A stretch of 64,000 bases of DNA, taken from positions 5,193 to 69,192 of the forward strand of contig JAEWYO010000044.1 of NCBI GenBank assembly GCA_023395595.1, written 5' to 3'. A program made the position numbers and the translations under genes. Source of the stretch: Bacillota bacterium (GTDB lineage: Bacteria; Bacillota; Clostridia; Christensenellales; CAG-138). Below, piece after piece: positions 22,929 through 61,821 of this stretch (position 1 is its first letter; every line of letters starts with the position of its first letter). Below the pieces are notes generated by a model, which saw only the letters and a list, made by a program, of their open reading frames with translations, ran no database searches and had not been told where the DNA came from.

Positions 22929-24437
22929 TTACAGCCGCTTCATTGTGCACTCCGACGGGATCATCTTGAGCAAAAACGGGAATCCCGCGTTGGTTGATCT
23001 GCGCGAGAAGATGAGTTGATCCATTTCCAGCGCGAGGCAATACTCCTGTTCAAAGCAGGATTCAATCCAGCGTGCAACGAAGACCAGCTTGGCCGGTTCC
23101 TCAAAATAACCGCTCAAGAGCACGCGCGTCATCGGCGAACCGGAACCGGAATAGTCGTTCTCCCGGCGGGAACCGTCCAAAGCGATCACAAAACGTTGTT
23201 CGTTTCCGTCGGCAAAGCGCAGATCCAGCGTGCAAGACGCGGAGGCGAATCCGATCGTGCAGCCTGCCACCTCCGGCGGAAGCGGCGCGCCGCCCATCAT
23301 GCTGCCGGTCGCTTCACCGATGATGAGTTTTCCGGAGCCGGTCTCATAAGCACCGGAGAGCAGTTCCCGCATGCCATGCGGCTGAAAAACGGGCTTGGGC
23401 AGCGCAAGCCGCTGCAAACGCGCGGCAAGCCTCGCGTCCGCCGCCTCGTCCGCGCGAAACGGTTCCGATTCCAGCCGCTCAAAGAAGCGCCAGATGCAAT
23501 CCAGCGATTTTTGCGCCCAGTGCGCGCTTCCCGCCGTCTCATTGATCGAAACGATCAAATCCAGCTTAGGATGCACGATAGAATATTGCCCGAACGCGCC
23601 GTCCGCACGATAGCAGCCGGGGTGGCGGCACATCCAGATTTGGAACCCATAGCCAACGAAATTATCCAGAGCGGGCGGGTTGTTTGCCGCCTCGCTCGCA
23701 GTGTCGATCTGTTTGCTGGTGGCAAGGCGCACATATTCTTCCGAGAGGATGCGCTCGCCCGACCATGTGCCGCCGTTTTGATAGAGCATCATCAACCGCA
23801 GGTTATCCTCCGTGGTAGCGAATAGCCCACCGCCGCCGACCTCAATACCATCCGGCATGGTCGTCCAGTGCAGGTTTTCCGCATCGATACCAATCTTGTC
23901 AAACAAGCGGGGCTTGAGATACTGCATCAGCGTCTTGCCCGATCTTCTGCAAACCATCGCGGCGAGCAGTGTCGATCCCGTGCTGTTGTAAAAAAATGCG
24001 CTGCCCGGCTCGTGCAACACGGGAGTAGCGAGAAAGTCGCGAATCCAGTCCGCGCTCGGCCACGGCATCTCCTCCATGCCCGTGCCCATGCAAAGCACGT
24101 CCCGCACAGTCATTTTACTCAGGTTTTCAGAGACCTCAGCGGGCATCTCCGCCGGAAATATCGCGGAAATCTTCTCGTCCAACCGCAAAAGCCCTTCTGT
24201 ATATGCGATGCCAACCGCGGTTGCCGCATAGGTTTTGGAGAGCGATTGCAGCCCGTGGCGTGTGCCCGGCGCATAGGGAGTCCACCATCCCTCAGCGCAA
24301 ACCTTGCCGTGGCGGAGGATCATCAGCCCATGTGGCTCAGTAAAGCCGGACTCCAGCTCGTCTAGAAACGCATTGATTGCGGCGGCGGACAAGCCAACTG
24401 CGCCGGGCGAAACCCGTTCTAATTCCATTCGATTCAT
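22929..24437 (-). CDS. serine hydrolase, beta-lactamase fold (family VIII carboxylesterase-like) with extra C-terminal domain
   Basis: SxxK motif QSLSKTY, a conserved Tyr region (FYNSTGS), no signal peptide, and 502 aa. It is a paralogue of 60301-61821. Confidence 0.8.
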   Translation of the reverse strand: MNRMELERVSPGAVGLSAAAINAFLDELESGFTEPHGLMILRHGKVCAEGWWTPYAPGTRHGLQSLSKTYAATAVGIAYTEGLLRLDEKISAIFPAEMPAEVSENLSKMTVRDVLCMGTGMEEMPWPSADWIRDFLATPVLHEPGSAFFYNSTGSTLLAAMVCRRSGKTLMQYLKPRLFDKIGIDAENLHWTTMPDGIEVGGGGLFATTEDNLRLMMLYQNGGTWSGERILSEEYVRLATSKQIDTASEAANNPPALDNFVGYGFQIWMCRHPGCYRADGAFGQYSIVHPKLDLIVSINETAGSAHWAQKSLDCIWRFFERLESEPFRADEAADARLAARLQRLALPKPVFQPHGMRELLSGAYETGSGKLIIGEATGSMMGGAPLPPEVAGCTIGFASASCTLDLRFADGNEQRFVIALDGSRRENDYSGSGSPMTRVLLSGYFEEPAKLVFVARWIESCFEQEYCLALEMDQLIFSRRSTNAGFPFLLKMIPSECTMKRL

Positions 24438-24504
24438 CGTGTCATTCCCTCTTCTTTCATTCTATTGTGCTTCTACCATCTCTTGTGCGTTTCTATCGTC
24501 GCCG

Positions 24505-26217
24505 TTATGCTTCCGATGTCTGAAACACCGTCGTCCCTTGCGGATCAACGCCCGTGACGGAAAACGTCGCTTGCGCAAAATCCACCAGTAGCGTCGCCGT
24601 GAATCCATCCTTCTGCCAAATAAAGCGCACGATGGATTCCGTCTCGCTCATGAGCGCCAGTTCTGCGTCAAAACCGAATGCGGGAAATGCGTTGCGAAAG
24701 CGCAGGAGCGCGAGCTGCCGCTGCACCACGTCTTGCCCGATTGACTCTTCGATTCTTTCTTTGGAAAGATTGCTGCGGTTGATCTCCTTGTGCCCACCCG
24801 CGCCAGCGTGCGCAACGGCTTCATGATCGTTTTTGCCCGCGAAGAGATCCAGATACCATACCTGCGGGATGCCGGGCATGAAAAGTTGCACCGCGCGGCA
24901 GAGCAAAAGTCGCTGTTCGCTCTCGCCCAATGCGGAAAAATACGTCGCGTTTACCTGATAATACGCGTTCTTCTGCCCGTAGAGATTCTTCACATAGCCG
25001 CCGCGCGAGACGACGGTTTGAATCAGCGATTCGATTCTTTCGTCCGGCACCAAGCCGCGCAAATCCAGCAGCGGGATTCCATCGTGGCAGCCGAGCATGT
25101 TGACCACGCGATAATCGTTTGTCACGAGCTCCGTCCCCCAGCGCGTAATCAGCGCGCCGGAACCTGTCTCCAACGCATCCAAAAGAACCCCCGGCAGGAA
25201 GAAGTCATAGGTCATATAGCCACGCTTGGCGATCTCGGCATACGTCTGCTCCGCATAGGTCGCGTGAATCTCCGGAAGCAGTGTCAGCCCCTGCTCCGCC
25301 GCCATGCCACGCAAGCACTCCAGCATCTGCCAAGTCTCCGGCTCGTTGAAGAAATTGCGTCTGCCCGCGATTTTGGACGCATACGCAAACGCATCCAGCC
25401 GGACGATCTTGGCGCCGTAGGAAGCAAGGTTCTCAAGCGTCTGCTGGTAAAACGCCCAGACAGCGGGAGAATTTACGTTCAAGTCCATCTGGCCGAGATA
25501 GCTGCGCTTGGATTCCAGCGTGTCGATTCCAGCAGCTTCCTTGCCGCTTGGCCAGTCGATCTCAGCTGGTTTTTTGCCCACGTCCAGCACGAGGTTGACG
25601 CGCTGCGTGAGCGCCTCCGCCGCCGCAGACGAGAGCGAGAGTCGCTCCATCCAATCGTTTACCGTCAGGCGCGGATAGCGAATTTCCTGATAAAACGTGT
25701 TCCAATACGGACGCTCGGTTCCGTCAGGAAAGCGCACCATCAAAATCGGCAAACCCGGCTTGCGGAAGAACATATCCGCGATCAGCTCCGGCTCCGGCTG
25801 CAGATAGCCCCCTTGCGTCATCTCACCCCTGCCACTCCAGAACGCGTTCCAGTCGATGAAAAAGTCGCGATAAGGCGAATCGTCACCACGCACGATCATA
25901 TCCTGAAACTGCGGAGACTGCACCGACGCATGGTTGAGCACAAAATCGAGTTTAAGCGAAACACCGCTCGCGCGAATGGCGTCAAGGTCGGCTTTGGTCG
26001 CCAGCGATTGCTCGATGCCGTAGTCAATTACGGAAAAGCCACGATCCAAATCGGTGTGAAACAGACTCGGCAGTACATAGAGCGCAGAAAACGCACCTTT
26101 CACCCCATCTTTTGCAAGAAACGCGGCGGCTTGGCCGAGCGTTTCACCAAGGCTATCGGGATACAGATTCAACATTGTTCCGCCGAGCGGGGAACTCTGC
26201 TTCGTTTCGTTTTGCAT
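24505..26217 (-). CDS. GH13_18 alpha-glucoside phosphorylase (sucrose-phosphorylase family), long variant
   Basis: Catalytic signatures VRLDAFAY (nucleophile), LLPEIH (acid/base) and CHDGIP; the N-terminal motif is LDRGFSVIDY. I set the start at ATG 26217 (MQNETK). The 796-aa ORF-track version overlaps the kinase gene and is rejected. Confidence 0.85.
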   Translation of the reverse strand: MQNETKQSSPLGGTMLNLYPDSLGETLGQAAAFLAKDGVKGAFSALYVLPSLFHTDLDRGFSVIDYGIEQSLATKADLDAIRASGVSLKLDFVLNHASVQSPQFQDMIVRGDDSPYRDFFIDWNAFWSGRGEMTQGGYLQPEPELIADMFFRKPGLPILMVRFPDGTERPYWNTFYQEIRYPRLTVNDWMERLSLSSAAAEALTQRVNLVLDVGKKPAEIDWPSGKEAAGIDTLESKRSYLGQMDLNVNSPAVWAFYQQTLENLASYGAKIVRLDAFAYASKIAGRRNFFNEPETWQMLECLRGMAAEQGLTLLPEIHATYAEQTYAEIAKRGYMTYDFFLPGVLLDALETGSGALITRWGTELVTNDYRVVNMLGCHDGIPLLDLRGLVPDERIESLIQTVVSRGGYVKNLYGQKNAYYQVNATYFSALGESEQRLLLCRAVQLFMPGIPQVWYLDLFAGKNDHEAVAHAGAGGHKEINRSNLSKERIEESIGQDVVQRQLALLRFRNAFPAFGFDAELALMSETESIVRFIWQKDGFTATLLVDFAQATFSVTGVDPQGTTVFQTSEA

Positions 26218-26224
26218 ATCGTTC

Positions 26225-27157
26225 TTACTCCGCGCGCAGTTGCTGCATTTGTTCCGGTGTAAAGAGTTCGCCGCTCTTGCTGACAACAATCTTTGCCTTA
26301 TGCGCCTGTTTTTGCAACAACCCTTGTTCGATCTCCAGCACCATCGTGGTAAAGGGGCTGTCCGGCGCGCCGTCCCGCGCGCGCAGCTTACGATGCGCGA
26401 GGGTTTCCTCCGGCGTGCTGTTGAGCAAAACCGGGATGTCCACACCCGCCAGCAGGTCGTTGTTGCCATGTGTCCATTCCACGACAAGCACGGAGACATT
26501 CTGCATCTCGACGCGTTCATACCAAAGCGCGGTTTCCTCCCGACCCATGCGTTTGAGAAACAGCGCGGGTTCACCTGCGTGAAAACGCGACAGAATGGTC
26601 GAAAGCTCTGCAAAATCGATCTCGTTTTGCGTGCCGAGATAACCCGAAAGCCCTGCCCTGCCTGCGTTTTGATAGATCGCAAGCCACGGGTGCTCACTGC
26701 GCAGCGCAGTATCCGCCTCGCGTCCGTCACGCATAAGTTGCGCGAGGGTTTCCGCCCGCGCGGCGTTATATTCACCCGCCGCGAGCAGTCCACGCAGCGC
26801 GGCAACGCGGAACACGCGCAGGCGCTCCGCATCGTTGAAAAACGGAATGCGATGCGGATAGTTGTCCCCGGAGAGCGTATAGGCCCCAATCCCACATTGA
26901 TTCAAATAAAAGCTCAGCAGTGACGCGGTTTCACTCTTGCCAACGCCGGAACCGCCGCAGATCGCGACAACCGCCTTTTGCGCGGGATTGTTCGCCAGTA
27001 CATCCGGCAGCAGCGTGAGCAGGCGCGGGAAAATCACATTCGCTTTGGCAATGTGCCCCGCGTTGATCGAAACCTTGTCCCCCGGCATGTCCCCGTGGGG
27101 GATTTCGTCCGGAATCGCAGGCGCGATCCATACGCGCGAAAAAACAGAAAGATCCAT
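26225..27157 (-). CDS. P-loop kinase, uridine-kinase / PRK / glycerate-3-kinase-like family
   Basis: Walker A AICGGSGVGKSE, followed by TLSGDNYPH, VVEWTHG and HRKLRARDG blocks typical of PF00485-type kinases. AGGAGA RBS. The stop lies 7 nt before the phosphorylase start. Confidence 0.65.
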   Translation of the reverse strand: MDLSVFSRVWIAPAIPDEIPHGDMPGDKVSINAGHIAKANVIFPRLLTLLPDVLANNPAQKAVVAICGGSGVGKSETASLLSFYLNQCGIGAYTLSGDNYPHRIPFFNDAERLRVFRVAALRGLLAAGEYNAARAETLAQLMRDGREADTALRSEHPWLAIYQNAGRAGLSGYLGTQNEIDFAELSTILSRFHAGEPALFLKRMGREETALWYERVEMQNVSVLVVEWTHGNNDLLAGVDIPVLLNSTPEETLAHRKLRARDGAPDSPFTTMVLEIEQGLLQKQAHKAKIVVSKSGELFTPEQMQQLRAE

Positions 27158-27169
27158 ATCTCTTTTCTC

Positions 27170-28282
27170 CTAAATCAGTGTCCTAAGCAGCGCGGCGAGT
27201 TCGTTCCCCATGCGCAGCTGCGTCTTCGCATTTGGATGGTTCAATCCGCCCATTCCCTCGCCCCACGGGTCGATTGCGCCAAACTTGAAGCAGACCACAC
27301 GGGTGTCGCCCGTCTTCTCGCGGTATTGCGCGGCTGCTTTTTCGATTGTGTCGTAAAGGAAATAGTCCATCGAACCAAGCGTGCAGACAATCCAAGCATG
27401 TTCTCCGTTGCAGGCGCGAACCTGCTGCAAAAACGCGGCATACCGCTCCTGAAAATAGGTCTCCTCCGCAGGGTCGTTGCCCGAAACGCGGATACGAAAC
27501 GCGTCGTTGGTGCCGAGGTTGATTACGACCGCATCCGGCTCAAAGCGCGAAAAATCCCAGCGGGTAAAGCATTCCTGTTTGCCCTCTCGCTCCTCTTGGA
27601 ACCGATCGGCATAGGCATAATAAGCCTCCATCGTCCGCACAGGCGGCGTAAAATCCGGCGCCCACGGCAGGCGCATGCGGTAGTGCTCATCTCGCGCCCA
27701 GCACAGGGGTATGCCGGAGACACAGACGAGCTGGTAGTCCGCGTCCAGCAACTCGGCGGCTATCGCGCCATAGGAGAGAAGCCCGTTCTCCTGCTCTGCA
27801 GAGAACTGCGCTGCCTCCGGCGGCATCTCGTTGCCAAACCCGCAGGTGATGGAATCCCCAATAAACTCGATCTTGCGCTTTCTGGTCACGGTTGAAGGCG
27901 AAAGCAGCTCGCCCTCAATCGTCAGCGCACGCAAGCCCGCTCTGCCCTTGGACCCTTCGGAGCGTTTGACGAGCGTAAGCGTATGCTCCCCCGCGATTTC
28001 GCTCGTAAACAGCGTGACGCAGCTCTCGCCCGCGGAAAGGGAGAAGATGCGCGCAGGCTCTTTTGCCCCGTCTAGAAACAGCGCAAACCAAGGCAAGCTG
28101 TCCGCCTCGCCGGGATAGGTTTCCGGAAAAGCGAGTGCGTCCAATACGACCCGTTTGCCAAAGAAACGCACAGTAAACCCCGCGCAAGACCAGTTAAAAA
28201 ACAGTGTATCCCGGCTCTCGTCATAGAGCGTCCGCCCCGACCAGCGCAGGTGCTGCGCGCAGTCTCTTGCCGTAAGAATCAT
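27170..28282 (-). CDS. CE2-type SGNH/GDSL acetyl esterase with N-terminal beta-sandwich
   Basis: Block I FIGDSITCGFG, block III LGTNDA, and a C-terminal His (LNHPN). An N-terminal domain of about 130 aa precedes the SGNH core, as in CE2. No signal peptide. Confidence 0.82.
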   Translation of the reverse strand: MILTARDCAQHLRWSGRTLYDESRDTLFFNWSCAGFTVRFFGKRVVLDALAFPETYPGEADSLPWFALFLDGAKEPARIFSLSAGESCVTLFTSEIAGEHTLTLVKRSEGSKGRAGLRALTIEGELLSPSTVTRKRKIEFIGDSITCGFGNEMPPEAAQFSAEQENGLLSYGAIAAELLDADYQLVCVSGIPLCWARDEHYRMRLPWAPDFTPPVRTMEAYYAYADRFQEEREGKQECFTRWDFSRFEPDAVVINLGTNDAFRIRVSGNDPAEETYFQERYAAFLQQVRACNGEHAWIVCTLGSMDYFLYDTIEKAAAQYREKTGDTRVVCFKFGAIDPWGEGMGGLNHPNAKTQLRMGNELAALLRTLI

Positions 28283-28312
28283 ATTTGCCTCCGTCGTGTC
28301 CCGTTTTACACC

Positions 28313-28732
28313 CTAGCGCAGGCGATAGACGCGAATGTCTACCGCGTTTTTTCCGCCGCTGACAAGTTCCGCCGCGTAGGTATCTCTGCTCAAAAAGGCA
28401 TATGTTCCGTCGATGTCACAGGTAAAACGCGGTGTAGTTCGTATGGTTGCGTTCTCGCGGTTCTGGTTATAGTATCCCTCGTTCTCGATGGCGATGATCG
28501 CGCCGTCGTCGGTTTCGATCCAGTAGCGAGCGTGCACATGCGCCACACCGCCGGGCAGTTGCGTGCTCCAGTCCGCGCCGCCGGGCAGAACCTTGCCGCG
28601 CAGCGCCTCTCCCTCGAAGCTGCCGCCGATGATCGGAATGATCACAAGCTTGCCAGCGCCGGTCTCACCGACGAGCTTCGGCACACCAACCTCCACATGC
28701 AGCGTGAGGATTGCGTCCGCCTCGAGCATCAT
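28313..28732 (-). CDS. DUF3237 (UPF0311) family protein
   Basis: PIIGGSFEGEALRGKVLPGGADW....ARYWIETDDGAIIAIEN matches my memory of the DUF3237 signature. The ATG at 28732 overlaps the upstream stop (ATGA). The ORF-track start at 28828 overlaps the esterase gene. Confidence 0.65.
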   Translation of the reverse strand: MMLEADAILTLHVEVGVPKLVGETGAGKLVIIPIIGGSFEGEALRGKVLPGGADWSTQLPGGVAHVHARYWIETDDGAIIAIENEGYYNQNRENATIRTTPRFTCDIDGTYAFLSRDTYAAELVSGGKNAVDIRVYRLR

Positions 28733-29538
28733 AACGCCGTCTCCTGCTCGCCAGACAGCCAGCCGAGGCTCGCGGGGAGCGACGCATTCCAGAATACATA
28801 GTCGTGCACGCCGGGTGTGACCCACCACGTGTGCGCGTAGCCGATCTCTTCCAGATGCGCATGAAATTCACAATTGCGCGCATAGAGAAAATCCTCCGAC
28901 CCGCAAGCTAAGAACAGCTTTGGCGCGGTGCCGTCCTTTAGCCGTTCGCTGGCCAGATGCATCGGGTCTTTATCCGAGCCCAGCAACGCCTTGGGTTCGC
29001 CAAATGTATGGCGATAATACGCATATGGTGCCATGAAGTTGCCCTCGCCTTCACGCATGTGCGCGACCTCGTTGGTAATCAACGCCGCAGAATGCGAGAG
29101 TATCGCACCAAACGTGTCCGCATACTTCAGCCCGTTGCGCACCGCACCATAGCCGCCCATCGAAATGCCGCCGATGACGGTATCCTCGCGCTTGCGGGAG
29201 AGCGGAAACATCCGGCGGGTGACATCCACCAGCTCTCTGCCAATAAACTCGCCGCAGTATTCCAGCGATTCTTCGATGTCAAGGTAAAAATTATTCCGCG
29301 CGTCCGGCATGATGACCGCGTATCCGCGCCGCGACGCCATCTCCACAATCTGCGTGTTGGTGATCCAGTCGTTGCGGTTGCCGGAAAACCCATGCAGCAG
29401 ATACAGCGTTGGGTACGGCCCGTTGGTGTAGGAAGCCTGTTCATGCCCTTCCGGCGGGCGCTCCACGGGAAGAATCGCGTTAAAGGAGACAAAGCCCCTG
29501 CGCGCCAAGGAATAATAGTCGCAATTGATCACAGCCAT
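28729..29538 (-). CDS. esterase-D / putative-esterase family (CE1-like) alpha/beta hydrolase
   Basis: PTLYLLHGFSGNRNDW, intact nucleophile elbow GGISMGGYGA, and C-terminal CGSEDFLY and PGVHDYVFW (Asp and His). Start at ATG 29538 with a GGAGGA RBS. Confidence 0.85.
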   Translation of the reverse strand: MAVINCDYYSLARRGFVSFNAILPVERPPEGHEQASYTNGPYPTLYLLHGFSGNRNDWITNTQIVEMASRRGYAVIMPDARNNFYLDIEESLEYCGEFIGRELVDVTRRMFPLSRKREDTVIGGISMGGYGAVRNGLKYADTFGAILSHSAALITNEVAHMREGEGNFMAPYAYYRHTFGEPKALLGSDKDPMHLASERLKDGTAPKLFLACGSEDFLYARNCEFHAHLEEIGYAHTWWVTPGVHDYVFWNASLPASLGWLSGEQETAL

Positions 29539-29593
29539 ACTGATTTCCTCCTGCCGGTCGTTTTTTTGTTTTTCTTCTATTCTTCTGTCGTGT

Positions 29594-30439
29594 TTAGAGA
29601 TAGGTAAACGGTTCTTTGGCGTCCAAAAAGACCACAGGTGTGCCGTTACCGATGTCCGCCAGCCAATCTCCAAGGCGCTTCATACCCGGTTCTTCGCTGC
29701 GCTCGTGCCCGAGCACGAGAATTGCGCGGTTGAGTCCAAGCTGATATGCATCCCGCACATAGGCGGGCAGAGTCCATTCCGTGATATCGCCGCAGATGAG
29801 CACATCCGCGTTTCGCAGGCGCATATAGCGCATCGGCATTTGCTCGGTGCCGAGGCCGAGACTCCCACCGCCGGGCAGAACGCCCACGCGGGAAACCTTC
29901 ATCTCCGGGTCGCCGATGATCTGGATCACGGGCATGTTGAACTTCGCTTTGAAGAAATCACAAAGCCCGCGCAGCGTGGTTTCGGGGATCTCGTAGCAAC
30001 CATCGGGTTTTCCAGTGATGCCAAATCCGAGGGTGTCAGTCGTTGGCGGTGCCATGCGGTATTTGTCCCAGCCGGTCTCCTGCTCGAAACCACGGAAAAT
30101 GCCGTCCTCACCAGCCATATGCATATGGTCGTGAAAACGCCAGATTGCGATGCCCGATTGATCGATCAGCGCTTTCTTCGCCCAATACACCTCGTCCTCC
30201 TGCACCCAGTCGGTCTTATCCATACCGGTAAACCAAGTCGGCTCGTGCGTGATGATGAGGTTTGCCCCCTCACTTGCCGCGCGGCGGATGACATCCACCG
30301 TCGCCATAAACGTAGTGGCGATCTTTGTCACCTGAGTGTCCCAGCTTCCGGCGATCAGACGATCGCACGTGCGCTCCTCCGGCAGAGGCGGAACGCCAGT
30401 CTTCTGAATGATTGCATCAACGATTTCACGAACGGTCAT
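29594..30439 (-). CDS. NIF3-like dinuclear-metal-centre protein
   Basis: ATVDVIRRAASEGANLIITHEP, HDHMH and ICGDITEW resemble NIF3/YbgI motifs. Start at MTVREIV with a GAGGGAGA RBS. Confidence 0.7.
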   Translation of the reverse strand: MTVREIVDAIIQKTGVPPLPEERTCDRLIAGSWDTQVTKIATTFMATVDVIRRAASEGANLIITHEPTWFTGMDKTDWVQEDEVYWAKKALIDQSGIAIWRFHDHMHMAGEDGIFRGFEQETGWDKYRMAPPTTDTLGFGITGKPDGCYEIPETTLRGLCDFFKAKFNMPVIQIIGDPEMKVSRVGVLPGGGSLGLGTEQMPMRYMRLRNADVLICGDITEWTLPAYVRDAYQLGLNRAILVLGHERSEEPGMKRLGDWLADIGNGTPVVFLDAKEPFTYL

Positions 30440-30513
30440 AGTATCTCCCTCTTTCCCAGAAAAACCCCGCATTTACGCGGGGTTTGTTGTTTTTGCAAAC
30501 CGGTTGCAGCCTG

Positions 30514-31413: not shown

Positions 31414-31427
31414 GTGCTCCTTCCCCC

Positions 31428-32345: not shown

Positions 32346-32475
32346 AGCAGAGCGTCCCTCCGTCGTGTTGTTGTTGCGCGCGCCGCCATTCAAACAGCCT
32401 TGCGCGGATGCGGGAGCGGAGAGGGAAAAGCCCCTTCCGCTCCCGTCGATACGCTACCTTGAATCGCTCAGGTTC

Positions 32476-41185: not shown

Positions 41186-41202
41186 GGGTTCACTCCTGTC
41201 TT

Positions 41203-50021: not shown

Positions 50022-50037
50022 TTTCTTGTCCTCCCGA

Positions 50038-50802: not shown

Positions 50803-50861
50803 CTGCTTTTACTCCTCCAAATCGAAACTGGATGCGCACGCATGCGCCAATTCATTCTGTG

Positions 50862-51698: not shown

Positions 51699-51721
51699 AC
51701 ACTTCTCCTATTCTTCTTGCT

Positions 51722-53218: not shown

Positions 53219-53220
53219 CG

Positions 53221-54693: not shown

Positions 54694-54761
54694 GAAATAC
54701 TCCCAACTCTGTCTCTTGATGCAACGCGTGTTCCTGCCAATGGACACATGCAGGCTTAAAT

Positions 54762-54775
54762 TGTAAACGTTTTCA
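54762..54775 (-). promoter_or_regulatory. candidate LacI/CcpA-type operator (TGTAAACGTTTTCA) overlapping a TACAAT -10
   Basis: A 14-bp near-palindrome fitting TGNAANCGNTNNCA, 69 nt upstream of the phosphorylase start. On the minus strand it reads TGAAAACGTTTACAAT. Confidence 0.5.
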
Positions 54776-54975
54776 TTTTTTTGGAAAAACAAGCGCCGGA
54801 CAAAGCCTTTTGTTTCGCACGGCTCCGTGCTTTCTTTTGCGAAAGCCGCTTGCTGTTTCTAGCAAGCCACGGTAGGGGCTCCCCGCACAGGAAAACCGGA
54901 GCCAATGCGTCTGTCTGGCGCTTGTTGTTTGCTCTGCGTCATGAAATGGTACCCGCAAAGCGCGAGATCGGTGCA

Positions 54976-55857
54976 TCAGCCCTTAACGGAACCGAGCGTG
55001 ATGCCCTTGACGAAATACTTCTGGAAGAAGGGATACGCAATCATCAGCGGAATCACCGCAATCACGGCGATTGCCATACGCACGCTGATGTTCGGAATCG
55101 ATTTTGCGCTGATCATGCCCGACGTGTGCGACTGGAGGAAAGCCGCTTTGTTCATCACGTCGTTGAGATAGTTCTGTATGCCGTAGAGGTCTGTGCGCGT
55201 GGTTAAGAAATACACGCCGTTTGTCCAGTTGTTCCAGTAGGAGATCAGCGTCATCAGCGCGATGGTCGCGATGATGGGTTTGCTCATCGGCAGCACGATC
55301 TTGAGCAGGCTCTGCACCTCGTTCGCGCCGTCAATCTTTGCCGCCTCCAGTACCTCGCCCGGAATGCTGGAGGTAAAGTAGGTGCGCATGATGATCACGA
55401 AAAACGCGTTCATCAGCAAAAACGGCACGATCATGCCCGCAAGAGAATCTTTCACATTGATGAGGTTTGTATAGACCATATAGGTCGGCACCAAGCCCCC
55501 GTTGAAGAGCATCGTGAAAAACAGGAAGAAGGAGATGGCACCCCGCCCGGGCAGGTCCTTGTGGGACAGCGGATAGGCAAAGAGCACTGTGAGTACGATG
55601 TTTGCCGCAACACCGATGAGCGCGATGACGATGCTCATCAGATATGCCCGCCCGATAGAATCTTTCGCGTCCCAGAGATATTTGTATGCGTCAAAACTCA
55701 GCTCCTTCGGCAGCAGCGAGTAGCCGTGCTGAATCAGATACGTCTCGGACGTGATGGAGCTCACGAACAGCAGCCAGAACGGGATGATACACGCGGCAAT
55801 CAGCGCCACCAGCAGAAAGTTGACGAAGAAATTGAACACCTTGCTGTTATTTACCAT
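54976..55857 (-). CDS. carbohydrate ABC transporter permease (LplC-like)
   Basis: EAA loop EAAKIDGANEVQSLLKIVLP; six TM. Confidence 0.88.
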   Translation of the reverse strand: MVNNSKVFNFFVNFLLVALIAACIIPFWLLFVSSITSETYLIQHGYSLLPKELSFDAYKYLWDAKDSIGRAYLMSIVIALIGVAANIVLTVLFAYPLSHKDLPGRGAISFFLFFTMLFNGGLVPTYMVYTNLINVKDSLAGMIVPFLLMNAFFVIIMRTYFTSSIPGEVLEAAKIDGANEVQSLLKIVLPMSKPIIATIALMTLISYWNNWTNGVYFLTTRTDLYGIQNYLNDVMNKAAFLQSHTSGMISAKSIPNISVRMAIAVIAVIPLMIAYPFFQKYFVKGITLGSVKG

Positions 55858-55941
55858 AGTTTTTACCCTCCGCCCGAAGGAGGCGCGCCTCGCTTCCGGC
55901 TGAACACATTTACTGTACCTTGATCCGGTTTCCCTGCGCCG

Positions 55942-56925
55942 TTAGAACAGCGCGCTCTCTTTGTCCAGCTTACCGACGAGCCAGTTTGCGCCAAACACAA
56001 GGATAAAACCGAAGATCGATTGCAGGAAGCCCGCCGCAGAGGAACGGCCAACGTCATTGAGCTCCAACAACGCGCGGTAGACAAACGTGTCGATCGTTTG
56101 TGTGGTGGAATAGAGCAATCCGCTGTGCTGGGGAATGAGATAGAACAAACCAAAGTCCGAATAGCAGATCCTGCCGACCGAGAGAAGCACCAGTGTGATG
56201 ATCGTTGGCTTGATGCCCGGCAGCGTGATGTGAAGAATCTGCTGCCAGATGCTTGCGCCGTCCACAACCGCCGCCTCATAATAGGTTTTATCGATGCTGA
56301 TGACACTCGAATAGTAGAGGATCGAGCTGTAGCCGAACGACATCCAGAGATAGACAATGTTGAGGATGAGCGGCCAATATTTCGACTCGTTGTACCATTT
56401 GATCGGGTTCTCCACACCGAAGAGCGGCAAGATCGTGTTGTTCATGAAACCGTTGGAGGGGCTGAGAAACGCAAACGCGATGTAGCTGACGATCACGGTG
56501 GAGAGCAGGAACGGAATCAAAAACACGACCTGGCTCACCTGCTTGAAGTATTTGTTCTTCGCGCTGTCGAGCGCAATGGCAACCACGATCGCCAGCAGGT
56601 TTCCAAACAGGATGAACCCAAGGTTGTAAAGAACCGTGTTTCGCAGGGCAAGCAGCGCGTCGTTGTTGCTAAAGAGGTATTTGAAGTTGTCCAGACCGAC
56701 CCACGGGCTCTTGAAGATACCCAGCGAGTAGTTGATCTTTTTGAACGCGATCAACAATCCCGCCATCGGCAGATAGTTGTTGATGATTAAATACACCGCG
56801 CCCGGGATGAGCATGAGATACAGCGGCAGAAAGCGCAAAAACCGCCTCTTTCTTCTGAGTCTCTGATACGACTTTTCAGAAGGGGTCATGTCCCGTTTTC
56901 CCGACGCTTTTGTCTTTTTTTCCAT
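55942..56925 (-). CDS. carbohydrate ABC transporter permease (LplB-like)
   Basis: EAA loop EAAVVDGASIWQQILHITLP. Start at MEKKTK (56925) with a GGAGG RBS. Confidence 0.88.
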   Translation of the reverse strand: MEKKTKASGKRDMTPSEKSYQRLRRKRRFLRFLPLYLMLIPGAVYLIINNYLPMAGLLIAFKKINYSLGIFKSPWVGLDNFKYLFSNNDALLALRNTVLYNLGFILFGNLLAIVVAIALDSAKNKYFKQVSQVVFLIPFLLSTVIVSYIAFAFLSPSNGFMNNTILPLFGVENPIKWYNESKYWPLILNIVYLWMSFGYSSILYYSSVISIDKTYYEAAVVDGASIWQQILHITLPGIKPTIITLVLLSVGRICYSDFGLFYLIPQHSGLLYSTTQTIDTFVYRALLELNDVGRSSAAGFLQSIFGFILVFGANWLVGKLDKESALF

Positions 56926-57497
56926 TGAACATCCTCCGTGAAGGGTTGAAGTGCGTTGATTTTTGCTTTGTTTCTTACGAAAGGCATGGTGCGAAATGTG
57001 CCTGAACAGCACCTTGGTAAGATCGTATCAAAAAGAAAAACCCCTCACTATCAAAATTCCGACTAGATTTGTTACTTTTCTGAAGGGTTTTGCAGAAACC
57101 CGGATTTCTGCAGATTTTTGCGGTTTTCTCATCGATAACTGCAATGGAAACCGAATTTCGATCAAGGTGCTAAACTATTTCGGAATCATTCTTATATAAA
57201 TGACGTGTAATTATTATCGAAAGAACGTTTTTCGGCTCTGTTTCCTCTGGTGAGGTCCAGTTGCGCTCGTTGACGTATATACGCGCCTTGCTCCCTGCGG
57301 TATTCCGCGATTTTACCCGTTTTTGATCGGAAATATGATAAAAGGGGTCAGAAATTTGATGGCATCGCCGCGAGACGCTTTGCTATGATGGCTGTGTCAG
57401 AGGCGGTCTGCCTCACCCATCCGGTATTTTTTTAATCACACAAGAGCAACCGAAAAACAAACCAGAAACCACAAAACCATAAAAGGAGAGAGACCCA

Positions 57498-59048
57498 ATG
57501 AAAAAGAGCAAGGCCCTATTGTCTATTCTTGCGATGCTCCTGATCGTCGGAATGCTCGGCGCCTGCGCAGCACCCGCCGCAACCACCGAAGCGACGGCAG
57601 CCCCCGCAGAAACCGCGGCAATCACCGAAGCAGCTCCCGCGGACGGCACCTACCCCGTGATCCGCATGGCATACACGAAGATGTTTGCCACCGACTCGGA
57701 AGCGAAGATTGAGGAAGCCCTCAACGTCATCATGCGCAAGGAAGCGCAGGCTGAAATCGACCTCATTCCCGTTGACTTCTCGACCATGAGCACCCAGCTC
57801 AACCTGATGCTCACCGGCGGTGAAGATTCCATCGATATCTTCTCGTCCTTCTGGTATATGCCGATGAGCACGCTCTATGCCAATGGTCAGCTGGCTCCGC
57901 TCAACGACCTGCTGGAGTCTGACGGGCAGGGCATCCTGGATCTGTTTGCAGACACACCCGGCATTCTGGATTGCTGCACCATCAACGGTCAGCTCTACGG
58001 TCTGCCCACCTATGGGCCGTTCTCTTCCCCGATGATCTATATCGTCAAGGAAGGCGCCTCCAAGGCCGCGAACATCGACTGGACCAACATCAAGACGCTG
58101 GATGAAGTCACCGCCGCGATTCTTGAGATGAAGAAAGCCAACCCGGACAAGTACTTTGTCCCCGGCGCAACACAGAGCTACTGGATTCCGAAGGACATCG
58201 ATTACCTCGGAGACACCAACTTCCTCGGCGTTCTGACCGATCCGCTCAACAGCACAACGGTCGAGAACTATTATGAATCCGCCTACTTCATGAACCTGCT
58301 CGACAACGTGAAGATCTGGTCGGACAACGGCATCTTCAACCCCGATGCGATGAGCAACACGAACCCCACGCTGATGAGCGTCCAGTTCGGCATCACGGAA
58401 GGCACCCCCGGCTACTGCTGGAACCTCGACGAATGGATCTATGAAGCAAACCTCCAGCAGACCTATGGCGACAACATGGTCGGCACACAGCTTGGCGATA
58501 GCATCATCACCACCGGCAATGCCACCACGTATCTGTATCACATCACGAGCTTCAGCCAGAACAAAGAAGCCGCCATGCGCGTGCTGAAAGTGTTCTATAC
58601 CAACTCCGAAGCCGCCAACCTTCTCGGCAACGGCATCGAAGGCGAAAACTACGTCATCGACGACAAGGGCTATGTCCGCTTCCCCGAAGGAAAAGACATG
58701 ACCAACTGCGGCTGGACCGGCCTCGGCGCATCCTACTATCTGCCCAACTCCTCCGGCTGCCCGGTGTGGTACTATCAGCCCGACAATATGTGGGAGATGA
58801 TGGTGCAGTCCAACAAGGACGCGAAGAACTCCCTCGCGCTCGGCTTCACCTTTGACAGCACGAAAGTTGCAGATCAGATCACCGCTTGCAGCAACGTCAT
58901 CGCGCAGTATTATCTGCCGCTGATCAACGGCGAAGTGAACATCGCAGAAGTGCTCCCCGTCTTCCAGAAGGCGCTGCACGATGCGGGCATCGATGCCGTC
59001 ATCGCAGAGAAGCAAGCCCAGCTTGACGCTTGGCTCGCCGCGAAATAA
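57498..59048 (+). CDS. extracellular solute-binding lipoprotein, large LplA-like type
   Basis: Lipobox MKKSKALLSILAMLLIVGMLGAC with an Ala/Thr/Glu/Pro tether. It resembles the 32476-34026 SBP at the C-terminus (AEKQAQLDAW). Confidence 0.85.
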   Translation: MKKSKALLSILAMLLIVGMLGACAAPAATTEATAAPAETAAITEAAPADGTYPVIRMAYTKMFATDSEAKIEEALNVIMRKEAQAEIDLIPVDFSTMSTQLNLMLTGGEDSIDIFSSFWYMPMSTLYANGQLAPLNDLLESDGQGILDLFADTPGILDCCTINGQLYGLPTYGPFSSPMIYIVKEGASKAANIDWTNIKTLDEVTAAILEMKKANPDKYFVPGATQSYWIPKDIDYLGDTNFLGVLTDPLNSTTVENYYESAYFMNLLDNVKIWSDNGIFNPDAMSNTNPTLMSVQFGITEGTPGYCWNLDEWIYEANLQQTYGDNMVGTQLGDSIITTGNATTYLYHITSFSQNKEAAMRVLKVFYTNSEAANLLGNGIEGENYVIDDKGYVRFPEGKDMTNCGWTGLGASYYLPNSSGCPVWYYQPDNMWEMMVQSNKDAKNSLALGFTFDSTKVADQITACSNVIAQYYLPLINGEVNIAEVLPVFQKALHDAGIDAVIAEKQAQLDAWLAAK

Positions 59049-59070
59049 GCACAGCAAGACAACACAGTTG

Positions 59071-59102
59071 AAAGCGAGGGCACCTCTGTGCCCTCGCTTT
59101 TT
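59071..59102 (+). terminator. rho-independent terminator after the SBP gene
   Basis: aaagcgagggcac / gtgccctcgcttt form a 13-bp stem with loop CTCT, followed by a T-run. Confidence 0.8.
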
Positions 59103-59116
59103 GAGAGGAACCATCC

Positions 59117-60304
59117 GTGGAATCAATGCAAACAGCCGAACAAACCCAAAAGCTTTGGAATAAGCAATACATACTCGTGCTGATCATCAGCACACTGAGT
59201 TCGTTTTCCTTCTATATGGTGGTGACGATACTCTCCAAATATCTCACCGGCATCGGACTCTCGATCGCGCTGGCTGGCGTCATCGTCGGCCTGTTTTCGC
59301 TGACCTCGCTCTTTAGCCGACCGTTCTGCGGCCTCATGGCAGACCGCCTCAACAATGTTTGGCTGCTGGTTGCGAGCAATATCCTCATGGCGCTTGGCCT
59401 CCTTGGCCTTGCATTTACCAGGAATGTAACGCTGATTTTCGTCTTTCGGATTTTAAGCGGACTTGGCTTCGCCGTCGGTAGCACGGTGCAGGTGTCCCTG
59501 ATCATCCGCTTTATCCCCAAGGACAAGATGGGCGAAGGCATCGGCTATATGGGCATCAGCCAACTCATTGGCTCCGCCTGCGCGCCCGCTGTGGGGCTTG
59601 CGATTGCAAACGCGGTCGGCATGCAGCAGACGTTTATCGCGGCGGCGCTTTTGCCCGCGCTGACGTGTCTGCTGCTGCTCTTCATGAAAGACCTGCATCA
59701 GCCAAAACCGCAGGCGAGCCAAACAATCGCGCTAAGAGACATCATCGAACCAAAGGCGCTGCCGTTCACACTGCCCTACTCCACGCTCTCGTTTGTCAAC
59801 GGTATTATCTCGTCCTATCTGGTGCTGTATGCAGATGAACGCGGTATCGCCGGCATCAGCGTCTATTTCACCGTGTACGCGGTGTTTCTCTTCCTGGTCC
59901 GTCCGCTTGCCGGCAAGCTCATGGACGCAAAAGGCATCCAGTACACCGTCTTTCCGGGCATGGTCATCACCGCACTGTCGATGTTTCTGCTCGGCAGAAG
60001 CACCGCGCTTTGGATGATCCTGCTCACGTCTTTGCTGCGTGCGGTGGGACAGGGCGCGGCGCAGCCGTCCTTGCAAGCGGGCTGCATCAATCATGTCGGG
60101 CGCGAACGCAGCGGCGTTGCAACAAGCACCTATTTCCTCGGTGGTGACATCGGCCAGGGCATCGGCCCGATGATCGGCGGCGCTATTCTGGGTCAGGTGG
60201 CGGGTCTTGCGGGGTATCAGCTCGTGTTCAGCCTGTGCGGCGTGCTGATTCTGCTCGCGATGACGTATTTCTATTTTGCGCGCAAACGGAGGAACCTGCC
60301 ATGA
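59117..60304 (+). CDS. MFS transporter
   Basis: 12 predicted TM segments and an MFS loop motif GLMADRLNN. GTG start with GAGAGGA 7 nt upstream. Confidence 0.85.
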   Translation: MESMQTAEQTQKLWNKQYILVLIISTLSSFSFYMVVTILSKYLTGIGLSIALAGVIVGLFSLTSLFSRPFCGLMADRLNNVWLLVASNILMALGLLGLAFTRNVTLIFVFRILSGLGFAVGSTVQVSLIIRFIPKDKMGEGIGYMGISQLIGSACAPAVGLAIANAVGMQQTFIAAALLPALTCLLLLFMKDLHQPKPQASQTIALRDIIEPKALPFTLPYSTLSFVNGIISSYLVLYADERGIAGISVYFTVYAVFLFLVRPLAGKLMDAKGIQYTVFPGMVITALSMFLLGRSTALWMILLTSLLRAVGQGAAQPSLQAGCINHVGRERSGVATSTYFLGGDIGQGIGPMIGGAILGQVAGLAGYQLVFSLCGVLILLAMTYFYFARKRRNLP

Positions 60305-61821
60305 CGCAATTCGATCTTCCGCGCTGCACGCCGGAAGAGATCGGTCTTTCCAGCACGCAGGTTGCTTCTTGTATTCAGGCGCTCAACCACGACCTGACCA
60401 CCATGAACGGGTTTATGGCGGCGCGCTATGGCAAAGTATTCGCTGAGTGCTGGTGGTCTCCGTTTCGCGCGGGGCTTGTGCACAGCAACCACTCCTTTGG
60501 AAAAAGCTATACCGCAACGGCGATCTGCATCGCCCAGCAGGAAGGTAAACTCCATCTCGACGAGCGCATGGCGGACATCTTTGCCGAGGAGATCGCCAGT
60601 CGCAATCTCCGCCTCGATGAGCGGACGCGCCGCATCACCATACGCCATGTATTGACCATGACAAACGGCATGGTGCACCATCCCGACATGGCGGGCGACT
60701 GGATCGGCAACTATTTCGCTACGCCCATGGCGCACGAGCCGGGTACGTACTTTGCTTACAACTCCGCGGGTTCGTGTATGCTCGGCGCGATCATTCTCAA
60801 GCGCACGGGGCAGAACCTGAAGGAGTATCTCACCCCGCGTTTGTTTGACAAGATCGGCATCGACGCAAATCGCTTCGTCTGGTGTAAGTTTCCCAATGGA
60901 ATCGACGGCGAGCCGGGCACTTTTGCCACCACGGAGGATAATCTACGCCTTGCCCAGCTCTACTGCAGCGGCGGCGTTTGGAGCGGTGAACAGATTCTCG
61001 ATTCAAATTTTGTACAAGAAGCGCTCTCGGTTCAGATTGAGAATCCCTATGCGCCGGAGCAGAAGGACGGCAGATGCGGCTACGGCTATCAGCTCTGGGC
61101 CTGCAGCATCCCCGGTGTGTTCCGATTTGACGGTGGACAGGGACAATATGGCATCCTCTGGCCGGAGAAGCAGCTTGTCATCTCGTTGCACGAGGGTGCG
61201 TTTGCGCCCGTCGGCCCGCAGAAGACGCTCGATGTGCTCTATGAGCATCTGCTTCTGCCGATGCTGGATGAGCCGCTCCCGACCGCGGATAAAGAATACC
61301 GCGCACTGCTTGCACTTGAGAATGCGCAGGCGCTGACGCGAGGCGACGTCGGCAGTACGCTGCCGGACGATGGTTGGAACGGCACTTATTCGGTGCAATC
61401 CGGCGTGTTTGATCCGTGGTTTGCCGTGGCTCCGCCGGGCGTTGGCGACCTGTTTGCCGCGTTTCGGGCGCCGGAGCACGACCGACGAATCCACAGCTTC
61501 ACACTCTGGGTCTTAGCCAGACAGGTCTCGCTGACGCTGGATTCCGGTGCGGAGATCTACGCATATCTCGACGGTACACTGCACGAGTGCGCTGTCCCCA
61601 CCCCGTTCCCCGCGCTGAGCGCCTATGCAGCAACCGCGCGGCTGCTGCCGGACGGTGCGCTGGAGCTGCGCATTCGCTGGCTCAACGGCTGGTTTGAGAC
61701 GATGCTACTCTTTGCGCAATCGGAGAACGGGCTGGCTGTTACGATGAAAAAACTCCGGCTCAATGCGGCCGACAACTATTTGATCGAAACCTGCTTTGCG
61801 GTACGGCAAAGCTGCGTTTGA
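60301..61821 (+). CDS. serine hydrolase, beta-lactamase fold (family VIII esterase-like) with C-terminal domain
   Basis: SxxK motif HSFGKSY. It is a paralogue of 22929-24437. The ATG overlaps the MFS stop (ATGA). No signal peptide. Confidence 0.8.
   Translation: MTQFDLPRCTPEEIGLSSTQVASCIQALNHDLTTMNGFMAARYGKVFAECWWSPFRAGLVHSNHSFGKSYTATAICIAQQEGKLHLDERMADIFAEEIASRNLRLDERTRRITIRHVLTMTNGMVHHPDMAGDWIGNYFATPMAHEPGTYFAYNSAGSCMLGAIILKRTGQNLKEYLTPRLFDKIGIDANRFVWCKFPNGIDGEPGTFATTEDNLRLAQLYCSGGVWSGEQILDSNFVQEALSVQIENPYAPEQKDGRCGYGYQLWACSIPGVFRFDGGQGQYGILWPEKQLVISLHEGAFAPVGPQKTLDVLYEHLLLPMLDEPLPTADKEYRALLALENAQALTRGDVGSTLPDDGWNGTYSVQSGVFDPWFAVAPPGVGDLFAAFRAPEHDRRIHSFTLWVLARQVSLTLDSGAEIYAYLDGTLHECAVPTPFPALSAYAATARLLPDGALELRIRWLNGWFETMLLFAQSENGLAVTMKKLRLNAADNYLIETCFAVRQSCV

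Follow-up and report, generated by a model that had tools for sequence, protein, structure and literature searches.

We describe here a sugar-import locus in a 64,000-nucleotide stretch of DNA (hereafter the window) from a Bacillota bacterium of the Christensenellales (CAG-138; GenBank assembly GCA_023395595.1, contig JAEWYO010000044.1, positions 5,193 to 69,192 of the forward strand), in which genes for ATP-binding cassette (ABC) importers, regulators and two phosphorylases of subfamily GH13_18 are combined with genes for 15 hydrolase-fold proteins. The reading that we favour, with a probability of about 0.6, is that the locus encodes a conserved cytoplasmic pathway in which an imported acylated alpha-glucoside, probably sucrose esters, is de-esterified and its core is then phosphorolysed. 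This reading is built on the gene content, the predicted cytoplasmic location of the hydrolases, their intact motifs, the fingerprints of the phosphorylases and a co-conservation that crosses phyla, and from these we infer which sugar and which acyl groups are involved, as well as the co-induction of the genes.

The locus covers ~41 kb. Open reading frame (ORF) listing and translation place 28 consecutive genes on the minus strand (22929-56925) and a divergent arm on the plus strand (57498-61821) with genes for a solute-binding protein (SBP; 57498-59048), a major facilitator superfamily (MFS) transporter (59126-60304) and a beta-lactamase-fold protein (60301-61821), an arrangement which agrees with the original prediction for this DNA; the locus then continues beyond 61821 to at least 64000, where the window ends. 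Intergenic gaps are mostly shorter than 70 bp, with larger ones before the regulator genes and before the second GH13_18 gene. For annotation, 32 locus ORFs and 20 flanking ORFs were scanned with Pfam and NCBIfam, sequence matches were sought in the PDB, and export signals were judged by the hydropathy of the N-terminus together with a lipobox check. A co-directional block with an SBP-dependent ABC importer, regulators and carbohydrate-active enzymes is the criterion for a Gram-positive utilisation locus, and all of these elements are present in the block. Three of its genes had been missing from the earlier description, namely those for a P-loop kinase (26225-27157), a NIF3 family protein (29594-30439) and a DUF3237 protein (28313-28732).

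The catalytic content of the locus is dominated by esterases. The only glycoside hydrolase (GH)-type Pfam match is Alpha-amylase, in the two GH13_18 genes, and Pfam scans found no further GH in the 64-kb window; neither Pfam nor NCBIfam detected hidden glycosidase domains in the 32 locus and 20 flanking ORFs, and GH36/Melibiase had no match in the window and did not recur in related loci. It had been claimed from the sequence that no glycosidase other than the two GH13_18 proteins is encoded here, and the Pfam, NCBIfam and PDB searches agree, since the HMM searches revealed no genuine GH domain in any of the ORFs called esterases. The hydropathy and lipobox check found no export signal on any hydrolase of the locus, and among the locus proteins checked only the two SBPs combine a hydrophobic N-terminus with a lipobox, exactly as had been predicted for both groups. 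NCBIfam provided no equivalog-level name for any esterase of the locus.

Thirteen of the 15 hydrolase-fold proteins look catalytically canonical. The original tally of ten alpha/beta-fold proteins, three beta-lactamase-fold proteins, one CE2-type and one SASA esterase holds as a count, but two of the alpha/beta members lack the GxSxG serine. Both belong to the five locus proteins that Pfam assigns to PF00756 ("Esterase"). Three of these five, all encoded on the minus strand, have an intact nucleophile elbow: GISMG (28729-29538; 269 aa), GFSMG (49212-50021) and GLSMG (50862-51698), with GxSMG in 136/136 orthologs (6/6, 44/44 and 86/86, respectively). The PDB relatives of the last one include the short-chain esterases 4rgy and 6vh9, the tributyrin esterase 2uz0 and the feruloyl esterases 7xrt and 1jjf. 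The two proteins without the nucleophile serine, also from the minus strand, read GYAMG (38633-39517; PF00756 1.8e-10) and GVGTG (50038-50802; PF00756 7.4e-11) at this position; Ala replaces Ser in 24/25 orthologs of the former (GxAMG) and Gly replaces it in 33/33 orthologs of the latter (GxGxG). This conserved loss suggests that the serine-less groups are likely non-hydrolytic esterase-fold proteins.

The remaining alpha/beta hydrolases are related to polyhydroxybutyrate (PHB) depolymerases, to carbohydrate esterases of family CE1 and to S9-type enzymes, and all are encoded on the minus strand. The PHB-depolymerase/CE1-like esterase at 39548-41185 (545 aa, GFSNG) matches Abhydrolase_2, Esterase_PHB and BD-FAE; it exceeds the PF10503 cut-off (27.3 against 23) and stays below those of TIGR01840 (57.8 against 107.85) and of the NCBIfam model e_dPHAscl_type1 (where it scores 107.8 bits). 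An S9/PETase-like hydrolase with the motif GMSMG, identified by Pfam, lies at 42436-43533. Three paralogs of ~500 aa with pairwise identities of 52-63%, which we call PHB500, combine a CE1/PHB-depolymerase-like esterase domain with a C-terminal beta-rich domain: paralog 1 (43574-45067; GMSMG, no Pfam match, 52% identical to paralog 3), paralog 2 (46105-47610; a weak Cu_amine_oxidN1 match) and paralog 3 (47658-49181), the only one above the Esterase_PHB gathering score (PF10503 27.5, cut-off 23; TIGR01840 59.9, below 107.85). GMSMG and D-H-G are invariant in an alignment of 30 PHB500 sequences, and the AlphaFold2 model (pLDDT 84) has as top Foldseek matches the PHB depolymerase 8daj/9byu, fungal CE1 acetyl-xylan esterases and feruloyl esterases. 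The family is small: of 1.84 billion representatives clustered at 50% identity, only 82 match it with E<=1e-30.

Three beta-lactamase-fold proteins and two acetylesterases complete the set. Two of the former match PF00144, the type A protein at 22929-24437 (minus strand; 502 aa, SLSK, 1.9e-30, best PDB match 8dc1, no signal peptide), a serine hydrolase or acyl-transfer enzyme, and the type B esterase at 41203-42372 (minus strand; SCTK, 3.3e-54), which scores 159.7 bits, below the cut-off, against the NCBIfam methyl acetate hydrolase AcmB. The third, a type A paralog in the divergent arm (60301-61821, plus strand; SFGK), was placed by its 44% identity to the first. The best named relative of the two ~500-aa type A paralogs is 3-succinylated cholic acid synthase, an O-acyl-transfer enzyme, with 227 bits for the protein at 22929-24437 and 166 bits for that at 60301-61821 against a cut-off of 800, and the C-terminal extension of ~190 aa of these paralogs has no family match. 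The CE2-type SGNH acetyl esterase (27170-28282, minus strand; 370 aa, GDSIT) is supported by CE2_N (47.6 bits, cut-off 27.9) and Lipase_GDSL_2 (48.5), with NCBIfam AxeC2 at 101.7 bits, below cut-off, and the SASA-family acetylesterase (51722-53218, minus strand) carries GQSNM (PF03629 6.6e-17).

Next, we analysed the two phosphorylases, GH13_18-1 (24505-26217, minus strand; 570 aa) and GH13_18-2 (53221-54693, minus strand; 490 aa), which are 35-40% identical to each other and both carry the nucleophile Asp (R-x-D-A-F-A-Y-A), the acid/base Glu (P-E-I-H) and the third Asp (H-D-G) motifs. The sequence of loop A is a specificity fingerprint in GH13_18: (L/V)D(I/L/V)YQ in sucrose phosphorylase (SP), GFDVHQ in TtSPP, FDTYQ in SphSPP, KxxYYQ in the strict sucrose-6F-phosphate phosphorylases (SPP) IcSPP and RgSPP, and VGAIYQ in glucosylglycerol phosphorylase (GGoP), while in glucosylglycerate phosphorylase (GGaP) a Glu replaces the loop-A Gln and (T/S)ETN is added (PMC7178133, PMC12703740). 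The classical loop (L/V)D(I/L/V)YQ was found in neither gene and in none of the 80 orthologous loci described below; VGAIYQ is also absent from both, and both keep YQ and PEIH, unlike GGaP.

GH13_18-2 is the anchor of the conserved locus. Its best PDB match is 7qqj (E 3e-161) and it reaches 622.5 bits against the TIGR03852 sucrose phosphorylase equivalog, above the cut-off of 334.4, and it retains the catalytic Asp/Glu/Asp. Its loop A, GKQAQRYQ, presents QAQRYQ where 7qqj and 7qqi have NLDIYQ and is 5 residues longer, and KxxYYQ is not found in it either. In the clade of this protein the loop takes the form G-K-(K/Q/P)-(A/V)-(Q/R)-(R/L/Q)-Y-Q, never with Asp, and this atypical loop was observed in each of the 80 genome loci and in 112 of the 120 best homologs (the search pattern did not match the other 8). 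The lack of the fructose-binding Asp and the conserved Lys/Arg argue that GH13_18-2 may act on a substrate other than plain sucrose, such as sucrose that still bears acyl groups, an anionic glucoside or some other alpha-glucoside, and this substrate is the weakest link of the proposed pathway. We found no paper describing this clade or its fingerprint in the searchable literature.

GH13_18-1 has a different profile. Its best PDB match is IcSPP (6s9u, E 2.8e-169), its loop A KNAYYQ fits the KxxYYQ fingerprint and its catalytic motifs RLDAFAYA, LPEIH and CHDG are all present, whereas its score against TIGR03852, named "sucrose phosphorylase", lies just under the cut-off (319.7 bits against 334.4). 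By these features it is predicted to be of the strict sucrose-6F-phosphate-phosphorylase type, needing a phosphorylated substrate. The gene for a P-loop small-molecule kinase and candidate sucrose kinase (26225-27157, minus strand; 310 aa, Walker A GGSGVGKS) ends 7 bp before the start of GH13_18-1. The scan assigned no Pfam or NCBIfam family to this kinase, and its AlphaFold2 model (pLDDT 88.9) gave as top Foldseek matches pantothenate kinase, uridine kinase 3asy (match 4, E 6.5e-6), glycerate-3-kinase and FrcK, a putative fructose-system kinase. In Ruminococcus gnavus the strict SPP gene always follows the AgaSK gene that contains the sucrose kinase (PMC6521584); no structure has been solved for the sucrose kinase domain of that protein, RgSK, for which 3ASY served as the modelling template, and Clostridium sp. 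L2-50 is reported to have sucrose kinase as a stand-alone protein (PMC7688924). By analogy with this route, the kinase and GH13_18-1 are best read as a module that would convert sucrose to sucrose-6F-phosphate and then to glucose-1-phosphate and fructose-6-phosphate.

The kinase directly followed by a KxxYYQ phosphorylase recurs as a pair in L087-L089 and, in the same order and orientation, in four of the related loci (L041, L059, L063 and L080); the pair is present in only ~5% of related loci. In L087-L089, which are unrelated loci, it is accompanied by PF00756, PHB500 and beta-lactamase-fold genes. L087 and L088, on ENA contigs carrying P0240, represent a smaller and different locus type without a GH13_18 of the GH13_18-2 clade, with the order PF00756, metallo-beta-lactamase fold, SBP_bac_1 importer, LacI, two PF00756, kinase, PF00756 and KNVYYQ phosphorylase, which suggests that esterases can also be combined with the kinase/SPP module by itself. 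Stand-alone kinase homologs of ~308 aa (P0124, P0133, P0148, P0150 and P0151) are named "alpha-galactosidase" by JGI, and NCBI calls others "adenylylsulfate kinase"; both names look like annotation errors, the former probably carried over from bifunctional AgaSK-type proteins.

To place the locus in a broader context, one genome per species was scanned using GH13_18-2 homologs as anchor, which yielded 80 loci of ~21 kb each; their ORFs were compared with the window proteins by blastp, and frequencies were calculated over the 63 loci of at least 18 kb. The 80 carrier species span three classes and include Clostridia, Paenibacillaceae and Actinomycetes, and the esterase families, the MFS transporter and the ABC importer flank the orthologous GH13_18 in them, so the block passed the check for co-conservation that had been proposed with the original prediction, and this cross-phylum synteny led us to reject a chance juxtaposition of operons. 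The nearest loci, at 88% identity, belong to Christensenellaceae metagenome-assembled genomes (MAGs), which makes this family the probable source of the window, the neighbourhoods of 80-81% identical homologs show full synteny with the window, and 68-72% identical homologs (in a Vallitaleaceae MAG, Paenibacillus oryzae and a Gemmiger MAG) keep the same families. Other carriers are found in Lachnospiraceae, Oscillospiraceae/Ruminococcaceae, Vallitaleaceae, Herbinix, Anaerobacterium, Paenibacillus, Cohnella, Radiobacillus, Microbacterium, Cellulomonas, Naasia and Actinomyces, and cultured ones include Herbinix hemicellulosilytica, Mediterraneibacter massiliensis, M. hominis, Faecalicatena contorta, Paenibacillus daejeonensis, P. 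oryzae, Cohnella fermenti and Actinomyces ruminicola. They come from chicken, mouse, human and ruminant guts, from biogas reactors and from soil, and include plant-associated Paenibacillus. Some of the loci with 80-81% identical GH13_18-2 and full synteny (L012, L015, L021 and also L001) are in MAGs labelled Anaerolineaceae, Anaerolineales or Chloroflexia; since the closest matches are Christensenellaceae, these labels reflect either mis-binning or mislabelling or a recent transfer.

The permeases (95%), PF00756 (92%), PHB500 (87%), the MFS transporter (81%) and the SBP (81%) are the most frequent partners in the 63 loci, followed by beta-lactamase type B (51%), the S9-like hydrolase (40%), beta-lactamase type A (29%), SASA (16%) and CE2 (10%), with a median of 7 esterase-like genes per locus (range 1-13). 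Actinomycete loci (Microbacterium, Cellulomonas, Actinomyces) are reduced to a minimal core, in which PHB500, PF00756, MFS and GH13 are kept together with two permeases. The layout SBP(-)/permease(+)/permease(+)/GH13(+) was found in most related loci, and the window's order of histidine kinase, response regulator, type A beta-lactamase, MFS and SBP is shared by L007 and L017. The ORFs without a window match were clustered and named from the Pfam labels of equivalent genes and by sequence reading; they include a polysaccharide-deacetylase-like (CE4-like) cluster (23 loci), an Abhydrolase_3-like esterase (16 loci), a MATE-like transporter (12 loci) and a type-B carboxylesterase-like (COesterase) cluster (6 loci), together with recurrent LacI-like and GDSL-like proteins. 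This clustering revealed no glycosidase family recurring among the 80 loci.

Taken together, these data support a mechanism in which the two lipoprotein SBPs and the LplBC-type permeases would import the intact or partly acylated sugar, and ~13 intact cytoplasmic esterases of six folds (PF00756, CE1/PHB-depolymerase-like, S9-like, beta-lactamase-fold, CE2 and SASA) would strip the different acyl groups position by position. The freed core could then follow two routes: GH13_18-2 would split it into glucose-1-phosphate and the aglycone without hydrolysis, or the kinase would make sucrose-6F-phosphate, which GH13_18-1 would convert to glucose-1-phosphate and fructose-6-phosphate. The conserved MFS transporter would probably move the released acids or a second substrate, and LacI and two YesMN systems would control expression. 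A sucrose core is favoured because GH13_18-1 has the strict SPP fingerprint and follows a small-molecule kinase, as in the R. gnavus route. The original prediction had proposed import of an acylated alpha-glucoside, deacylation and phosphorolysis; the gene content, the co-conservation and the sucrose-type marks speak for it, but the two phosphorylases are not equivalent, and two of the proteins that it had counted as esterases are without a nucleophile.

The most likely substrates are sucrose esters from plants, for instance hydroxycinnamoyl-sucroses that are acetylated, or acyl-sucroses with short chains. These would fit the esterase repertoire, because it mixes acetyl esterases (CE2, SASA, CE4-like) with CE1/feruloyl-like and tributyrin-like enzymes, and they would fit the carriers, because these live in plant-fed habitats; such compounds do exist, an example being the multiply acetylated diferuloylsucroses of maize roots (bioRxiv 10.1101/332056).

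Several observations weigh against this assignment. The GH13_18-2 loop is without the Asp of LDxYQ, FDVHQ and FDTYQ, and among sucrose-active fingerprints only that of strict SPP lacks it; this acceptor loop has conserved Lys/Arg instead. For the kinase, a phmmer search of the PDB gave only P-loop matches to adenylylsulfate (APS) kinase and no detectable sequence match to a characterised sucrose kinase, and its homology to RgSK rests on fold class, synteny and JGI naming, as no sucrose kinase structure has been solved. In addition, two conserved PF00756 paralogs are devoid of the catalytic serine, a fructokinase-like PfkB gene occurs in only 3/86 loci, and the solved homologs of the SBPs are distant (E 1e-18 to 1e-36) and give no clue to the ligand. 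The PfkB gene had been tried as a marker for a sucrose core and was discarded as uninformative.

In a rather unlikely alternative with the same logic, the core for GH13_18-2 would be an acylated glucosylglycerol or glucosylglycerate, or deacylated alpha-glucosyl glycerolipids, and the kinase/SPP pair would be an add-on in some genomes. The loop A of this clade fits no sucrose-active fingerprint, its conserved basic residues could bind a carboxylate, kinase/SPP pair and PfkB are both rare in the loci, and GH13_18 already holds phosphorylases for glucosylglycerol and glucosylglycerate; however, the loop is not the VGAIYQ of GGoP and keeps the Gln instead of the Glu of GGaP, the nearest solved relatives are of the sucrose-phosphorylase type (E 1e-161, with 622 bits for TIGR03852), genes for a glycerol or glycerate kinase are not among the recurrent ones of the loci, and the second phosphorylase, where found, is of the sucrose-6F-phosphate type. 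The esterases themselves could point elsewhere, to an accessory locus for the de-esterification of acetylated or feruloylated xylan or mannan oligosaccharides, with the glycosidases encoded elsewhere and GH13_18 serving an unrelated use of sucrose. CE2, SASA, CE1-like and PF00756 esterases are indeed typical of xylan and mannan loci, and the closest solved or curated relatives of the locus esterases include acetyl-xylan and feruloyl esterases. We nevertheless consider this quite improbable, given that xylanase, xylosidase, mannanase and arabinofuranosidase families do not recur in the 80 loci (a lone GH43 was seen, in the kinase-anchored locus L089), that GH13_18 is an invariant partner even in the minimal actinomycete loci, and that all the esterases are predicted to be cytoplasmic in a window whose only GH genes are the two GH13_18.

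A comparably low probability applies to two co-located functions, that is, plain use of sucrose or sucrose-6F-phosphate (by the ABC importer, kinase and phosphorylases) next to esterases and an MFS transporter for non-sugar esters that would be taken up separately, for example phenolic esters of the chlorogenate type, oligomers of hydroxyalkanoates or xenobiotic esters. Such a split would accommodate the resemblance of the MFS protein to generic acid and drug transporters, the similarity of the esterases to PHB depolymerase and PETase/BHET hydrolase, and the presence of a thiolase/SDR/CoA-transferase cluster upstream in the window; against it, the linkage is kept across three classes with an interleaved order, with esterases between the permeases and the phosphorylase and inside unbroken co-directional gene strings with short gaps, and the kinase/SPP pair independently accompanies the same esterase families in other locus types. 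Finally, the locus might serve biosynthesis or remodelling, with the phosphorylase running in reverse, the beta-lactamase-fold and serine-less proteins acting as acyltransferases that build acylated glucosides, and the MFS transporter exporting the products. The reactions of GH13_18 enzymes are reversible, the MFS gene is exporter-like and conserved, and the type A beta-lactamase-fold proteins show similarity to 3-succinylated cholic acid synthase, a curated model of an acyltransferase, but they score far under its cut-off, the loci contain no acyl-CoA or acyl-carrier genes, and two SBP-dependent importers, LacI and YesMN sensors are hallmarks of catabolic sugar loci, which makes this version very improbable.

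Import, de-esterification and phosphorolysis of sucrose esters, the reading we prefer, can also be compared with known systems, and by analogy the locus appears to work like a Gram-positive sugar-utilisation locus and partly like the AgaSK/SPP route of R. gnavus. The Rgaga1 locus of R. gnavus E1 (AgaSK plus RgSPP; PMC6521584, PMC7688924) is likewise a Gram-positive ABC-importer locus that trims decorated sucrose in the cytoplasm; there a P-loop kinase phosphorylates sucrose and a KxxYYQ GH13_18 encoded just downstream splits sucrose-6F-phosphate, an order and fingerprint that the window shares. Unlike Rgaga1, where a GH36 alpha-galactosidase acts on raffinose-family sugars, the window has no GH36 and ~13 esterases, its kinase is a stand-alone protein of 310 aa whose homology to RgSK is unsupported by sequence, and it adds a second, uncharacterised GH13_18 clade, and it is this clade that is truly conserved. 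Operons of classical sucrose phosphorylases (BaSP/LmSP, EC 2.4.1.7; PMC7178133) share the GH13_18 fold, the Asp/Glu/Asp triad and YQ, and the closest structures, 7qqj and 7qqi, carry the SP fingerprint; by contrast, loop A of GH13_18-2 is 5 residues longer and has (A/V)(Q/R/K)xYQ in place of (L/V)D(I/L/V)YQ, and the genomic partners here are esterases and not only a sucrose transporter and a repressor. Gram-positive xylan and mannan loci with CE1, CE2 and SASA esterases have the same esterase families and the same scaffold of LplABC-type importers with YesMN, LacI and YesL, but they are centred on GH10, GH43, GH26 or GH130 with few accessory esterases; here this ratio is inverted, with no such GH in the window or recurrent in the 80 loci. 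The locus is therefore not a classical sucrose phosphorylase operon, because it does not have the loop fingerprint, nor a locus for raffinose-family oligosaccharides, because it lacks GH36, nor a hemicellulose locus, because it has no hemicellulases. To our knowledge, the only enzymes dedicated to removing acyl chains from acyl-sucroses are the tomato ASH carboxylesterases (plant acylsugar acylhydrolases), which by description belong to another carboxylesterase family and are active in trichomes, outside any import-and-phosphorolysis pathway.

The original prediction stated that no dedicated system of this kind was known, and this is in line with our searches: neither an esterase-dominated GH13_18 locus nor bacterial sucrose-ester catabolism turned up in the searchable literature, outside which most subscription journals lie, and a Butyrivibrio transcriptome paper mentions both enzyme types, but not in one locus. 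The locus contains one clade of phosphorylases that is apparently uncharacterised, along with two or more protein families that are also uncharacterised. A more ambitious version, which we put forward tentatively and as possible rather than probable, would see in these loci a widespread new bacterial pathway that eats plant acyl-sucrose defence compounds, with a new GH13_18 specificity whose remodelled basic acceptor loop may accept still-esterified sucrose or another alpha-glucoside, a dedicated two-domain PHB500 family, and serine-less proteins in a non-hydrolytic role, for instance binding or acyl migration.

The transport and regulatory genes are those expected from the original description, in which two LplABC-type importers, an MFS transporter, LacI and YesL were all identified correctly according to Pfam. 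Importer 1 (30514-34026, minus strand) comprises two BPD_transp_1 permeases (30514-31413 and 31428-32345) and a DUF3502 lipoprotein SBP (32476-34026; DUF3502 plus SBP_bac_1, lipobox AFAC at residue 20). Importer 2 (54976-59048; Pfam) has its permeases on the minus strand (54976-55857 and 55942-56925) and its DUF3502 lipoprotein SBP, with the lipobox LGAC at residue 20, in the divergent arm. The MFS_1 transporter (plus strand; 392 aa, PF07690 2.1e-56) has only generic MFS matches in NCBIfam, and its gene is also kept in the minimal actinomycete loci. A YesN-type response regulator (34330-35913; Response_reg plus HTH_18), a YesM-type histidine kinase (35950-37665; His_kinase, HAMP, HATPase_c), a YesL-like DUF624 membrane protein (37848-38483; PF04854) and a LacI-family repressor (45064-46065; LacI plus Peripla_BP_1/3) are all encoded on the minus strand; LacI was detected by blastp in 33% of related loci, and the unmatched ORFs include one more cluster that is LacI-like. 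Both of the YesM/YesN systems that had been predicted exist, but the second is outside the 22929-61821 range assigned to them: according to the translations, 61929..64000 on the minus strand holds its YesN-type regulator (61929-63533) and a YesM-type kinase that is truncated by the end of the window, so that only its C-terminal part is included. The DUF3237 protein (minus strand; 139 aa, PF11578 6.5e-26) and the NIF3/DUF34 family protein (minus strand; PF01784 6.4e-19) complete the block. NIF3 is kept next to the importer-1 permeases in L046 and L059, two Ruminococcaceae genomes, and because of this conserved position it may belong to the pathway.

Additionally, we searched for regulatory sites. 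A cre/LacI-type palindrome, TGTAAACGTTTTCA (54762-54775), overlaps the -10-like TACAAT of a promoter-like site on the minus strand (54787-54760), 63-82 bp upstream of GH13_18-2, which at the level of consensus suggests a regulated internal promoter between the permeases and the enzyme genes. A LacI operator common to the intergenic regions was considered and rejected, as this is the one cre-like palindrome in the whole window. At the left border, a long perfect hairpin (AAAACCTCCTACCGA...TCGGTAGGAGGTTTT, 22860-22900) lies between a convergent Liv-type SBP gene and the first locus gene and is probably a bidirectional terminator. The 23 kb upstream of the locus hold unrelated genes (a Mur ligase, an oleate hydratase, a helicase, the thiolase/SDR/CoA-transferase cluster and a Liv-type ABC system) and no GH. 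The cluster, at 9823-17394 on the minus strand, encodes two alpha/beta hydrolases, a thiolase, an SDR 3-oxoacyl reductase-like protein, an acetyl-CoA hydrolase/transferase and a KAS-III-like protein and might process short-chain or 3-oxo/3-hydroxy acids. The oleate hydratase-type (MCRA-family) gene (4981-6762; 597 bits) is isolated, with a tocopherol-cyclase-like ORF on one side and a DEAD-box helicase on the other.

Sucrose esters are common defence compounds and dietary or additive molecules, which include the acylsugars of Solanaceae, the feruloyl- and sinapoyl-sucroses that cereals and many other plants contain in acetylated form, and food additives based on sucrose esters. If the proposed pathway is correct, it would account for the way in which bacteria of the gut, rumen and rhizosphere detoxify these esters and harvest them, and the sucrose-phosphorylase subfamily, important in biotechnology, would gain a new substrate specificity. 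The pathway would also provide a function for families now considered hypothetical (PHB500, the stand-alone kinase and the serine-less PF00756 paralogs) and a toolbox of regioselective sugar-ester esterases.

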